Part shown: piece after piece, positions 3,727-14,736 of the stretch
Position numbering within the stretch: position 1 is the stretch's first letter
How the letters are laid out: each line of letters starts with the position of its first letter
Assembly: GCF_044324875.1 (NCBI RefSeq)
Contig: NZ_CP172185.1
Source: Escherichia coli
GTDB taxonomy: Bacteria; Pseudomonadota; Gammaproteobacteria; Enterobacterales; Enterobacteriaceae
Length of the DNA: 64,000 nucleotides
Direction: 5' to 3' (one strand)
Made by a program: the position numbers and the translations under genes
The notes under the pieces: generated by a model
Told to the model about the DNA's origin: nothing
The model's input: only the letters and a program-made list of their open reading frames with translations
The model's database searches: none

Positions 3727-4386
3727 ATGGATCGTATTGTTAGTTCTTCACATGACCGTACATCGCTGCTTAGCACCCATAAGGTGCTGCGTAATACCTA
3801 TTTTCTGCTGAGCCTGACGCTGGCCTTTTCTGCGATTACCGCAACTGCCAGTACGGTGCTGATGCTGCCATCTCCGGGTCTGATTCTGACGCTGGTGGGT
3901 ATGTATGGTTTGATGTTCCTGACCTATAAAACGGCGAATAAGCCGACCGGGATTATCTCCGCATTCGCCTTTACCGGTTTTCTGGGTTATATCCTCGGAC
4001 CAATTCTGAATACCTATCTGTCTGCCGGAATGGGTGACGTAATCGCTATGGCACTGGGCGGAACGGCGTTAGTGTTCTTCTGCTGCTCTGCATATGTGCT
4101 GACCACCCGCAAAGATATGTCGTTCCTCGGCGGTATGCTGATGGCGGGTATTGTGGTGGTGCTGATTGGTATGGTTGCTAATATCTTCCTGCAACTGCCT
4201 GCTCTGCATCTGGCGATCAGCGCGGTCTTCATTCTGATCTCCTCTGGCGCTATTTTGTTTGAAACCAGCAACATCATTCATGGCGGTGAAACGAACTATA
4301 TTCGTGCCACGGTTAGCCTGTATGTTTCGCTGTACAACATCTTCGTCAGCCTGCTGAGCATTCTGGGCTTCGCCAGCCGCGATTAA
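3727..4386 (+). CDS. yccA: BAX inhibitor-1 family inner membrane protein, FtsH modulator
   Basis: 219-aa ORF, multi-pass hydrophobic profile, matches YccA. Confidence 0.9.
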
Positions 4387-10797: not shown

Positions 10798-11244
10798 ATG
10801 CGTACCGTTTTGAACATTCTGAACTTTGTGCTTGGCGGATTTGCCACCACTCTGGGCTGGCTGTTGGCGACTCTGGTCAGTATTGTGCTGATTTTTACCT
10901 TACCGCTGACACGATCCTGCTGGGAGATCACTAAACTGTCTCTGGTGCCTTATGGCAATGAAGCTATTCATGTCGATGAACTGAACCCGGCTGGCAAAAA
11001 TGTGCTGCTAAATACTGGCGGTACGGTATTGAATATTTTCTGGCTGATTTTCTTTGGCTGGTGGTTATGCCTGATGCACATTGCAACGGGCATCGCACAA
11101 TGTATTTCCATCATTGGCATTCCTGTCGGCATTGCGAACTTTAAAATTGCCGCTATTGCACTATGGCCGGTCGGTCGTCGCGTGGTATCGGTAGAAACAG
11201 CGCAAGCTGCGCGTGAAGCCAATGCACGTCGTCGTTTTGAATAA
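10798..11244 (+). CDS. yccF: Inner membrane protein YccF
   Basis: 148-aa hydrophobic ORF matching YccF. Confidence 0.88.
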   Translation: MRTVLNILNFVLGGFATTLGWLLATLVSIVLIFTLPLTRSCWEITKLSLVPYGNEAIHVDELNPAGKNVLLNTGGTVLNIFWLIFFGWWLCLMHIATGIAQCISIIGIPVGIANFKIAAIALWPVGRRVVSVETAQAAREANARRRFE

Positions 11245-11262
11245 TCCACTAATATGGCCTTT

Positions 11263-13416
11263 ATGCTAAGTCCTTTGCTCAAACGCTATACCTGGAACAG
11301 CGCCTGGCTGTATTACGCGCGTATTTTTATTGCGCTTTGTGGAACCACAGCGTTTCCGTGGTGGCTGGGTGATGTAAAACTGACGATTCCGCTGACGCTG
11401 GGGATGGTGGCAGCGGCGCTGACCGATCTCGATGACCGGCTGGCGGGACGTTTGCGTAACCTCATCATTACGCTGTTCTGCTTTTTTATCGCCTCGGCCT
11501 CAGTAGAATTGCTGTTTCCCTGGCCCTGGCTATTTGCAATTGGTTTAACGCTCTCTACCAGCGGCTTCATTTTGCTCGGCGGTCTGGGTCAACGCTATGC
11601 AACAATTGCCTTCGGTGCGTTACTGATCGCCATTTACACTATGTTGGGGACGTCACTGTATGAGCACTGGTATCAGCAGCCGATGTATCTGCTGGCCGGT
11701 GCCGTCTGGTACAACGTCCTGACACTTATTGGTCATCTACTGTTCCCGGTCCGCCCGCTGCAGGACAACCTGGCGCGTTGCTATGAACAACTGGCGCGTT
11801 ACCTTGAGCTCAAGTCGCGCATGTTTGATCCTGATATTGAAGATGAAAGCCAGGCACCGCTGTACGATTTGGCTCTCGCCAACGGTCAGCTGATGGCGAC
11901 ATTGAATCAGACGAAACTCTCGCTGCTGACCCGCTTACGTGGCGATCGTGGTCAACGGGGAACGCGTCGCACGCTGCATTATTACTTCGTCGCGCAGGAT
12001 ATTCACGAGCGTGCCAGCTCTTCTCATATTCAGTATCAAACATTGCGTGAACATTTTCGCCACAGCGACGTGCTGTTCCGTTTTCAGCGGCTGATGTCGA
12101 TGCAGGGCCAGGCGTGCCAGCAACTGTCACGCTGTATTTTGTTGCGTCAGCCTTATCAACATGATCCGCATTTCGAGCGCGCTTTTACGCATATTGATGC
12201 TGCGCTGGAGCGGATGCGCGATAACGGCGCACCTGCCGATTTACTCAAAACACTGGGATTTTTGCTGAACAATTTACGCGCCATTGATGCCCAACTGGCA
12301 ACAATTGAATCAGAACAGGCCCAGGCACTGCCCCATAATAATGACGAAAATGAGCTCGCTGATGACAGCCCGCACGGATTGAGTGATATCTGGCTGCGTC
12401 TTAGCCGTCACTTCACGCCGGAATCCGCCCTCTTCCGTCATGCGGTAAGAATGTCGCTGGTGTTGTGCTTCGGCTACGCCATCATTCAGATAACCGGAAT
12501 GCATCACGGGTATTGGATCTTGCTGACAAGTTTGTTTGTCTGCCAGCCAAACTATAACGCCACGCGCCACCGCCTGAAGTTAAGGATTATTGGTACGCTG
12601 GTAGGTATCGCCATTGGGATTCCTGTGCTGTGGTTTGTACCGTCACTGGAAGGGCAACTTGTGCTACTGGTTATTACCGGCGTGCTCTTTTTTGCCTTCC
12701 GTAATGTGCAATACGCCCATGCAACGATGTTCATCACACTTTTGGTGCTACTGTGTTTTAACTTGCTGGGTGAAGGTTTTGAAGTGGCGTTACCTCGCGT
12801 AATCGATACGCTGATTGGTTGTGCCATTGCGTGGGCGGCAGTGAGCTACATCTGGCCTGACTGGAAGTTTCGCAATCTGCCGCGCATGCTCGAACGTGCC
12901 ACCGAGGCCAACTGTCGCTATCTCGATGCCATACTGGAGCAATACCATCAGGGGCGTGATAACCGTCTGGGGTATCGTATTGCCCGCCGCGATGCACACA
13001 ACCGTGATGCTGAACTGGCGTCGGTGGTATCAAATATGTCCAGCGAGCCGAACGTTACCCCGCAAATTCGCGAGGCCGCGTTTCGGTTGCTGTGCCTTAA
13101 CCATACGTTTACCAGCTATATCTCAGCCCTCGGTGCTCACCGGGAGCAGTTAACTAATCCTGAAATTCTGGCGTTTCTTGATGACGCAGTTTGCTATGTT
13201 GATGACGCGCTACATCATCAACCTGCTGATGAAGAACGCGTCAATCAGGCATTAGCTGGCCTGAAACAGCGAATGCAGCAACTTGAACCGCGGGCAGACA
13301 GCAAAGAACCTCTGGTCGTACAACAAGTCGGGTTATTGATTGCATTACTGCCAGAGATTGGTCGTCTGCAACGCCAGATTACTCAAGTTCCGCAGGAAAC
13401 TCCTGTTTCGGCGTAA
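11263..13416 (+). CDS. yccS: Inner membrane protein YccS (YccS/YhfK family)
   Basis: Large multi-pass membrane ORF; start taken at MLSPLLKRYTWNS (alternative ATG at 11254 gives 720 aa). Confidence 0.88.
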   Translation: MLSPLLKRYTWNSAWLYYARIFIALCGTTAFPWWLGDVKLTIPLTLGMVAAALTDLDDRLAGRLRNLIITLFCFFIASASVELLFPWPWLFAIGLTLSTSGFILLGGLGQRYATIAFGALLIAIYTMLGTSLYEHWYQQPMYLLAGAVWYNVLTLIGHLLFPVRPLQDNLARCYEQLARYLELKSRMFDPDIEDESQAPLYDLALANGQLMATLNQTKLSLLTRLRGDRGQRGTRRTLHYYFVAQDIHERASSSHIQYQTLREHFRHSDVLFRFQRLMSMQGQACQQLSRCILLRQPYQHDPHFERAFTHIDAALERMRDNGAPADLLKTLGFLLNNLRAIDAQLATIESEQAQALPHNNDENELADDSPHGLSDIWLRLSRHFTPESALFRHAVRMSLVLCFGYAIIQITGMHHGYWILLTSLFVCQPNYNATRHRLKLRIIGTLVGIAIGIPVLWFVPSLEGQLVLLVITGVLFFAFRNVQYAHATMFITLLVLLCFNLLGEGFEVALPRVIDTLIGCAIAWAAVSYIWPDWKFRNLPRMLERATEANCRYLDAILEQYHQGRDNRLGYRIARRDAHNRDAELASVVSNMSSEPNVTPQIREAAFRLLCLNHTFTSYISALGAHREQLTNPEILAFLDDAVCYVDDALHHQPADEERVNQALAGLKQRMQQLEPRADSKEPLVVQQVGLLIALLPEIGRLQRQITQVPQETPVSA

Positions 13417-14008
13417 GAGAGTCAGCCCATTCTGCAAGCTCCTGGCGGCGTGCCACCGGGAGCGCAGCTTCATGAATGCCGATAATGGCCCCTTCAAGCA
13501 TAAACAGAATCTTTTCTGTCACCAGACTGTTTTGCTGCCGCAGTCGCAACCAACACATTTTTGCCCCAAGTATACGTAACGCCCGTACATCCTTAATCCC
13601 CACCTCCCCGAGAATCGCTTCCAGATGAAAAGACATATTGGGCAAATCTTTCAGTCTTTCCCGGGTATTGCGCGTGCTTTTCTCTTTCAGCGCTGCATCG
13701 AGAGAATATTTCGACAGACGCACCAGCTTCAGTTGATTTCGCCATAGACTTTCATCAACCCGATAGTAATTGAGGGTAACGGATCGGCCACACTTTTTAT
13801 ATGTCAGCCAAACAGGCGGATGTTTTACACAGTACTGTGCACTTTGCTCACAAGCCCGAAGATACAACTCACCATCAGAAACCATCGCAAACACCGTGTC
13901 GTCAACGGTCAGGCTGTAACTACCAAACAATGATCGGTATTCAATTGTGCCCAACGTTGCCAGGTATTCTTGTGATTTATAGATCCGCTTATAGGAGAGG
14001 CTTTTCAT
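13379..14008 (-). CDS. sxy: Competence regulator Sxy/TfoX
   Basis: 209-aa ORF MKSLSYKRIYKSQEYLATLG; 3' end overlaps the 3' end of yccS by about 38 bp. Confidence 0.9.
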   Translation of the reverse strand: MKSLSYKRIYKSQEYLATLGTIEYRSLFGSYSLTVDDTVFAMVSDGELYLRACEQSAQYCVKHPPVWLTYKKCGRSVTLNYYRVDESLWRNQLKLVRLSKYSLDAALKEKSTRNTRERLKDLPNMSFHLEAILGEVGIKDVRALRILGAKMCWLRLRQQNSLVTEKILFMLEGAIIGIHEAALPVARRQELAEWADSLTPKQEFPAELE

Positions 14009-14184
14009 AAAATTCCTTTTAAAATCATAACATGAAAGAATGATTCACATTAACGGATCCGTTAACTACGAAAATAGGCAACTTATTCTTAAGGGGCAAG
14101 ATTAATTTATGTTTTCCCGTCACCAACGACAAAATTTGCGAGGCTCTTTCCGAAAATAGAGTTGATCTTTGTCGTCACTGGATG

Positions 14185-14204
14185 TACTGTACATTCATAC
14201 AGTA
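14185..14204 (+). promoter_or_regulatory. LexA (SOS) box in the sulA promoter
   Basis: TACTGTACATTCATACAGTA, a near-perfect CTGT-N8-ACAG palindrome about 23 bp upstream of the sulA ATG. Confidence 0.85.
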
Positions 14205-14226
14205 ACTCACAGGGGCTGGATTGATT

Positions 14227-14736
14227 ATGTACACTTCAGGCTATGCACATCGTTCTTCGTCGTTCTCATCCGCAGCAAGTAAAATTGCGCGTGTCTCTAC
14301 GGAAAACACTACAGCCGGGCTTATCAGTGAAGTTGTCTATCGCGAAGATCAGCCCATGATGACGCAACTTCTACTGTTGCCATTGTTACAGCAACTCGGT
14401 CAGCAATCGCGCTGGCAACTTTGGTTAACACCGCAACAAAAACTGAGTCGCGAATGGGTTCAGGCATCTGGGCTACCCTTAACGAAAGTAATGCAGATTA
14501 GCCAGCTCTCCCCTTGCCACACCGTGGAGTCAATGGTTCGCGCTTTACGCACGGGCAATTACAGCGTGGTGATCGGTTGGTTGGCAGATGATTTGACTGA
14601 AGAAGAGCATGCTGAACTTGTTGATGCGGCAAATGAAGGTAACGCTATGGGGTTTATTATGCGTCCGGTAAGTGCATCCTCTCACGCCACGAGACAACTT
14701 TCCGGGCTAAAAATTCACTCTAATTTGTATCATTAA
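14227..14736 (+). CDS. sulA: SOS cell-division inhibitor SulA
   Basis: 169-aa product [23 protein letters not shown]; LexA box immediately upstream. Confidence 0.92.

Follow-up and report, generated by a model that had tools for sequence, protein, structure and literature searches.

In Escherichia coli, transcripts with complementary 3′ ends arise from 276 of the 370 convergent operons, and the sxy and yccFS operons were shown to converge in the same study (Conway et al. 2014; PMC4161252). The sxy-yccS pair was subsequently included in a list of 165 convergent excludons that occur in 50% or more of 58 MG1655 transcriptomes (ExcludonFinder 2025; PMC12288877). A second type of system relevant to this locus was described by Dar and Sorek (2018; PMC6061677). 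In that system, the steady-state ends of Rho-dependent transcripts lie just 3′ of stable stem-loops that have no U-run; the stem-loops shield the RNA from PNPase and RNase II, and the rut sites are found immediately downstream.

The overlap of the sxy and yccS coding sequences is thus already known, being annotated in RefSeq and published in both studies of convergent transcription cited above. What is new here is a conserved, synonymously constrained hairpin (Table 1), whose only unusual trait is that it sits within the coding sequence of the partner gene. The first-pass annotation of this DNA, made from the letters alone, had found no terminator hairpin between the two genes. This statement holds for canonical intrinsic terminators, none of which was found by a consensus scan in or near the overlap. 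It does not hold for the conserved, selected hairpin, which lies inside sxy, beyond the yccS stop codon.

Table 1. Features of the sxy/yccS junction and its surroundings, in positions of the window (the whole 64,000-nucleotide stretch of E. coli DNA that was analysed)
Feature	Position	Strand	Description	Basis
yccF	10798..11244	+	First gene of the yccF-yccS operon	ORF and RefSeq annotation of identical strain; yccFS operon of Conway et al. 2014
yccS CDS	11254..13416	+	YccS/FUSC-family putative transporter, 720 aa; TAA at 13414-13416	
Spacer between the last conserved codons of YccS (...RL) and Sxy (W194)	13369..13426	.	58 nt in E. coli; each tail reads into it from its own side	
Convergent CDS overlap	13379..13416	.	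38 bp; last 12 codons and stop of both proteins, all in unconserved C-terminal tails	
sxy (tfoX) CDS	13379..14008	-	209 aa, co-activator of the CRP-S regulon; stop 13379-13381	
Conserved GC-rich hairpin	13432..13467	+	Core arms 13438-13447 and 13454-13463; E. coli extension CUGC/GCAG; sxy codons 182-191	
Candidate Rho-utilisation region	13468..13623	+	C-rich, G-poor yccS-sense read-through RNA, antisense to sxy	Composition only

The two genes are adjacent, yccS on the plus strand and sxy on the minus strand, and their 3′ ends face each other, so that they form a convergent pair. The gene names and positions given by the first-pass annotation agree with the open reading frame listing, with the sequence itself and with the RefSeq annotation of a 100%-identical strain, in which yccS and sxy have the same coordinates. 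An annotation artefact can be ruled out as the origin of the overlap, given that both stop codons are unambiguous and the RefSeq annotation is identical. The comparison with K-12 suggested in the first-pass annotation was carried out and gave the expected result: in MG1655, where sxy occupies 1021138..1021767 and yccS 1021730..1023883, the overlap is again 38 bp. It should be noted that the K-12 yccS start is annotated three codons downstream of the start used here. Orthologues of YccS match the Pfam FUSC-like/FUSC_2 domains, and homologues of Sxy match TfoX_N and TfoX_C. The sxy/yccS region was found in 5425 of 5426 complete E. coli genomes. With up to two mismatches to the CRP-S consensus allowed, no site was found upstream of sxy within the sxy-sulA spacer, and the window-wide count of such sites is at the chance level.

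An overlap of coding sequences has a direct consequence for the transcripts. The full-length mRNA of either gene carries at least 38 nt antisense to the other and, therefore, translatable mRNAs of the two genes cannot both end before the partner gene is entered. Convergent transcription across the overlap, as proposed in the first-pass annotation, is for this reason unavoidable, and it is also evident in published RNA-seq. Whether such transcription matters to either gene is a separate question. Antisense interference with the competence regulator, which the first-pass annotation had suggested, is physically possible; it is without specific support and is, in our opinion, best treated as a side-effect until shown otherwise. 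Our search of the literature found no report of the overlap regulating sxy, of an effect of yccFS on Sxy, or of mutual exclusion between the two operons.

The overlap itself was surveyed at the locus of 80 Enterobacteriaceae species, both stop codons being located in each. The tail-to-tail order of sxy and yccS is present in 78 of the 80 species, and the length of the overlap is not conserved, ranging from -11 to 80 bp. Thus, the overlap measures 38 bp in Escherichia (41 bp in E. albertii), 14-23 bp in Salmonella, 11-47 bp in Citrobacter, 44 bp in Enterobacter, 80 bp in Trabulsiella, 16 bp in Leclercia, 7 bp in Kosakonia, 4 bp in Buttiauxella, and 0 or -11 bp in Kluyvera. The protein segments that produce it are likewise variable, as both the Sxy tail beyond W194 and the YccS tail beyond ...RLQxQ are unconserved and differ in length. 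What is nearly constant is the spacing of the conserved cores of the two proteins, which falls within 48-59 nt at 78 of 79 loci, 48 of these having exactly 58 nt. Each unconserved C-terminal tail extends into this spacer up to the first stop codon in its frame. In simulations with random sequence of the window's base composition and a 58-nt spacer, the two reading frames overlapped in 79% of trials, with a median of 53 nt and a probability of 0.60 for an overlap of 38 nt or more. The 38-bp overlap, therefore, is what chance would produce, because the conserved cores are only about 58 nt apart. It appears to result from the close packing of the two genes, and its length in Escherichia is one state of a character that drifts. 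The non-random feature of the sxy/yccS junction is rather that there is no intergenic DNA at all.

These observations bear on the proposal that the pair acts as a functional convergent excludon, in which polymerase collision, RNase III cleavage of the duplex, or both would lower expression of the partner and keep the competence regulator silent, with the hairpin positioning the collisions. The constancy of the tail-to-tail order in Enterobacteriaceae and in more distant Enterobacterales is in line with this proposal, as are the convergence of the operons and the listing of the pair among excludons from MG1655 RNA-seq, both cited above. So is the fact that, at other convergent pairs, a hairpin fixes the site at which converging polymerases collide. 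Moreover, 5295 of 5425 E. coli genomes have no more than one base difference in the 102-bp stretch comprising the overlap and the hairpin, whereas the surrounding 801 bp are at least 99% identical in only 1206. We nevertheless consider a functional excludon unlikely. The overlap varies in length and matches chance expectation. The entire block matP-ompA-sulA-sxy-yccS-yccF-helD is syntenic, so the adjacency of the two genes requires no special explanation; in three distant Enterobacterales, with Sxy 43-47% identical, the block matP-ompA-(sulA)-sxy-yccS-(yccF)-helD is retained, with overlaps of 4 bp and 26 bp and a 2-bp gap. Any pair with overlapping coding sequences is automatically called by ExcludonFinder, and the literature search described above revealed no yccFS effect on Sxy. 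Finally, collision-driven termination is reported to work best for highly expressed pairs, and neither of these operons yields a Term-seq 3′ end.

The hairpin begins 15 nt past the yccS stop codon and 45 nt upstream of the sxy stop codon; its plus-strand sequence is CUGCAAGCUCCUGGCGGCGUGCCACCGGGAGCGCAG, with a folding energy of about -22 kcal/mol. The arms are the antisense of Sxy codons R188-Q/R189-E190-L191 and A182-L183-P184-A185, which form a core of 10-11 bp. About 70 of 76 loci across Enterobacteriaceae share this core, AGCUCCYGGCG / CGCCGGGAGC. The position of the hairpin relative to yccS is also regular. Across 78 loci, the base of the stem lies 12-49 nt 3′ of the yccS stop codon, and the yccS reading frame never reaches the hairpin, its stop being located 1-38 nt ahead of the W194 codon in all 78. 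Without this stop, the yccS frame of E. coli would remain open for another 22 codons. A few genomes in which the genes abut have a weak hairpin (L052, L053, L055, L064, L072, and L074). In the three distant Enterobacterales the hairpin is weak in one (L083), not evident in another (L085), and replaced by a different hairpin in the third (L084).

Three lines of evidence, namely recoding, codon choice and covariation, show that the hairpin is a selected RNA structure, beyond what the conserved amino acids explain. First, the native sequences fold more stably than their synonymous recodings, the mean z over 65 distinct sequences being -2.8 for the yccS-sense and -2.6 for the sxy-sense strand. Second, the codons of the arms are peculiar. 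L183 is encoded by the rare CTC in 95% of sequences, while CTC makes up 11% of Leu codons in the window; E190 is GAG in 91% of sequences against a usage of 31% in the window; P184 is CCG in 99% and R188 is CGC in 92%; and residue 189 is encoded by the rare CGG every time Arg occurs there. Accordingly, the normalised codon entropy of the arms is 0.35, compared with 0.81 at 78 other conserved Sxy columns (Mann-Whitney p = 4e-4). Third, 91% of the cells in the paired columns are standard pairs, as opposed to 38-52% when the partner columns are slid. Changes on both sides of the stem are seen at four pairs, among them columns 12/37 and 19/30, where G-C has become A-U, and columns 13/36, where C-G has become U-A. 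The covariation score was reached by none of 500 shuffles, although the sequences are related, so that these statistics overstate their independence.

The same data were used to weigh the reading in which the palindrome works as DNA and not as RNA, for instance as an operator bound by a dimeric protein. An inverted repeat whose arms are as highly conserved as GCTCCYGGCG and CGCCGGGAGC would suit such a site. The compensatory changes at columns 12/37, 19/30, and 13/36, however, preserve pairing and not sequence, and the tolerance of G.U on one strand only, described below, is a signature of RNA, unlike the recognition of duplex DNA. A search of Rfam with positions 12600-14400 at E ≤ 1 returned no match, and this absence of a family match was also counted against the DNA-site reading, which we regard as very improbable.

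The structure being that of an RNA, it remains to be asked on which strand, and for which gene, it is maintained. Wobble pairs provide one indication. The alignment contains 66 cells that are G.U on the yccS-sense strand and only 7 A.C cells, in which the G.U pair would be on the sxy-sense strand. When individual sequences are considered, pairing is better on the yccS-sense strand in 48 of 69 and on the sxy-sense strand in 2. A second indication comes from two genomes in which the genes are separated, by a 249-bp gap in L049 and a 2286-bp gap in L051. In both, the hairpin inside sxy is absent: L183 is CTG, the folding energy of -11 to -13 kcal/mol is at the null level, and the peptide is largely kept. 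The yccS gene in both genomes has a GC-rich hairpin of its own 10 nt past its stop codon, again without a U-run, and sxy of L051 has its own canonical intrinsic terminator. The comparison of hairpin loss with gene separation thus comprises two genomes. A reciprocal structure serving sxy was sought in the last 35 conserved codons of yccS and was not found; the codon entropies there are ordinary (0.33-1.0, mostly 0.6-1.0). Taken together, the strand asymmetry, the position of the yccS stop codon, the loss of the hairpin in separated genomes, and the lack of a counterpart in yccS point to an element of the yccFS 3′ end. As judged from sequence, the hairpin is, therefore, most likely a 3′ element of the yccFS transcript placed in the coding sequence of the neighbouring gene.

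The same observations have to be set against an alternative in which selection acts on the hairpin as part of the sxy mRNA, where it might slow ribosomes near the end of the reading frame, form a barrier to 3′ exonucleases or serve as an attenuator, its proximity to the yccS stop being incidental. After all, the structure sits inside sxy, and the sxy-sense strand, too, is more stable than its recodings, as shown by the mean z given above. There is also a precedent in Haemophilus influenzae, where Sxy is reported to be under post-transcriptional control via mRNA structure (PMC2248739). The wobble asymmetry, however, favours the other strand by both counts, and Q189, encoded by CAG in 36 of 65 sequences, places a C.A mismatch in the centre of the sxy-sense stem. 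Furthermore, the two genomes with a non-adjacent yccS have lost the hairpin while largely keeping the amino acids, and a 3′ barrier located 45 nt upstream of the stop codon would give rise to non-stop mRNAs. For these reasons, a role in the sxy mRNA appears improbable to us.

If the hairpin belongs to yccFS, the manner in which it would act is suggested by its flanks. No U-tract directly follows the stem, the 3′ flank being GCAGCUUCAUGAAUGCC (CUUCAUGAAU). Downstream of the hairpin, the ratio of C to G is 1.57, 1.83, and 3.44 in successive windows of 78 nt, compared with a 90th percentile of 1.5 and a 99th percentile of 2.23 over the whole window, though antisense strands of genes are often C-rich anyway. 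The lack of a U-tract and the C-rich RNA downstream make a protective or pausing 3′ stem-loop of a Rho-terminated transcript the most likely function. Transcription of yccFS would pass the stop codon, continue through the hairpin and enter sxy. Rho would terminate the transcript further downstream, on the untranslated C-rich antisense RNA, and 3′-5′ exonucleases would trim it back to the hairpin, which would protect the mRNA. The hairpin might additionally pause RNA polymerase and fix the site of head-on collisions. The part of each yccFS mRNA that is antisense to the 3′ end of sxy would then measure about 90 nt or more, and sxy transcripts, lacking a comparable conserved 3′ structure, would read into yccS. 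For the interval from 1020120 to 1026525, the Term-seq and Rho tables of Adams et al. (2021) contain neither a 3′ end nor a Rho region on either strand, and they have no entry for sxy, yccS, or yccF; the missing entries are probably due to weak expression of both operons under laboratory conditions.

The explanation as a whole, combining tight packing of the two genes, a selected hairpin embedded in sxy, and a yccFS message that is terminated by Rho and trimmed, is the one we favour with moderate confidence. A bolder version would make the junction a regulatory switch: yccFS transcription would pause or collide at the hairpin and, directly or via RNase III, truncate or destabilise the sxy mRNA upstream of its stop codon, the tight packing itself being selected. 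Such a switch would help to explain why the competence regulon of E. coli is hard to induce, but we regard it as rather doubtful.

The overlap alone is of no consequence, as it is annotated, published, and expected by chance at the given spacing. The significance of the locus lies elsewhere. Codons 182-191 of sxy represent a clear case of synonymous sites constrained by the needs of a neighbouring operon on the opposite strand. In practical terms, whoever recodes, tags or deletes the 3′ end of either sxy or yccS also changes the 3′ end of the partner's mRNA. At the same time, the hairpin allows clean synonymous mutations, with which it can be probed whether yccFS transcription influences Sxy, whose control in E. 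coli is poorly understood.

How the junction relates to known systems can now be stated in structural terms. The hairpin resembles a canonical intrinsic (Rho-independent) terminator in its GC-rich stem of 10-14 bp and its short loop, and differs from one in having no U-tract 3′ of the stem. It also resembles the overlapping bidirectional terminators and the sites of collision-driven termination (Ju et al. 2019; Wang et al., bioRxiv 10.1101/2022.10.23.513370), in which one palindromic hairpin, located between convergent units or at their ends, can form in both transcripts. Those terminators, however, are intergenic and end both transcripts past their stop codons, whereas the sxy/yccS hairpin is without flanking A and U tracts. 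That it could be a bidirectional terminator, or the normal terminator of sxy, is ruled out by its location upstream of the sxy stop codon, where it would truncate sxy.

As to the convergent excludons (PMC4161252; PMC12288877), the locus shares with them the arrangement of two convergent units with complementary 3′ ends, and both papers name this pair. The overlap of sxy and yccS extends beyond the 3′ UTRs into the coding sequences, and it is in its arrangement that the pair corresponds to the excludon concept, the point of which is mutually exclusive expression. The hairpin itself is like the stem-loops of Dar and Sorek (2018; PMC6061677): it is stable and GC-rich, it is located soon after a stop codon, it has no U-run, and it is followed by C-rich RNA. 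In L049 and L051, too, a stem-loop without a U-run is found shortly past the yccS stop codon. Unlike the stem-loops of that study, the sxy/yccS hairpin, known here from sequence, sits in the coding sequence of a convergent gene and is kept via the synonymous sites of that gene.

In 5295 of 5425 E. coli genomes, the 102 bp that comprise the sxy/yccS overlap and the hairpin within sxy show no more than one base difference. For the 801 bp around them, a typical identity is just ~98.6%, and only 1206 genomes reach at least 99%. Thus, the stretch is locally more conserved than its flanks.

In the more distant Enterobacterales locus L084, where Sxy is 43% identical and the genes overlap by 26 bp, the E. 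coli-type hairpin is absent. A different, perfect 13-bp hairpin (UCUGGCCAGCACU/AGUGCUGGCCAGA) lies a few codons deeper into sxy, ~75 nt after the yccS stop; it may have arisen independently to meet the same need. At two Enterobacteriaceae loci, other DNA separates the genes. The 249-bp spacer of L049 (folding z = -5.1) contains two perfect 12-bp hairpins, each adjoining one stop codon, and has the appearance of a palindromic, REP-like insertion. In L051, a 200-aa ORF and a 425-aa membrane protein gene, both on the minus strand, are inserted, and a canonical intrinsic terminator comes directly after sxy on its side of the insertion.

On the plus strand, a stretch antisense to the central part of sxy is markedly rich in C and poor in G (31 C vs 9 G); its C/G ratio of 3.44 exceeds the 99th percentile of 78-nt windows across the 64-kb window.

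Features and their coordinates (E. coli: window positions; other loci: locus positions)
Feature	Genome or locus	Position	Remark
Overlap plus hairpin	E. coli	13379-13480	
C-rich stretch	E. coli	13546-13623 (+)	
sxy codons 10 and 14	E. coli	13967-13981	near-fixed codon choice; codon usage, 79 distinct sxy sequences
LexA-box-like palindrome	E. coli	14185-14204	
sxy-yccS spacer	L049, Enterobacteriaceae bacterium UBA5654	4125-4373	
Terminator after sxy	L051, Superficieibacter electus	4137-4154	
Two inserted genes	L051	4173-6081	between sxy and yccS
L084 hairpin	L084	about 4023-4052	within the sxy codons for ...SGQHQEVLAR...

Between the divergent genes sxy and sulA lies TACTGTATGAATGTACAGTA, a perfect palindrome that resembles a LexA box and is located 23-42 nt upstream of where sulA starts (14227). 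The sulA gene is under SOS control, with which this palindrome is consistent.

Near the 5′ end of sxy itself, codon choice is nearly fixed at two positions, Y10 (TAT in 99% of the sequences compared) and E14 (GAA in 100%), and is free to vary at other conserved columns. A possible explanation is a structure in the 5′ part of the mRNA or an element of translational control. Such control is described for Haemophilus influenzae sxy (PMC2248739).
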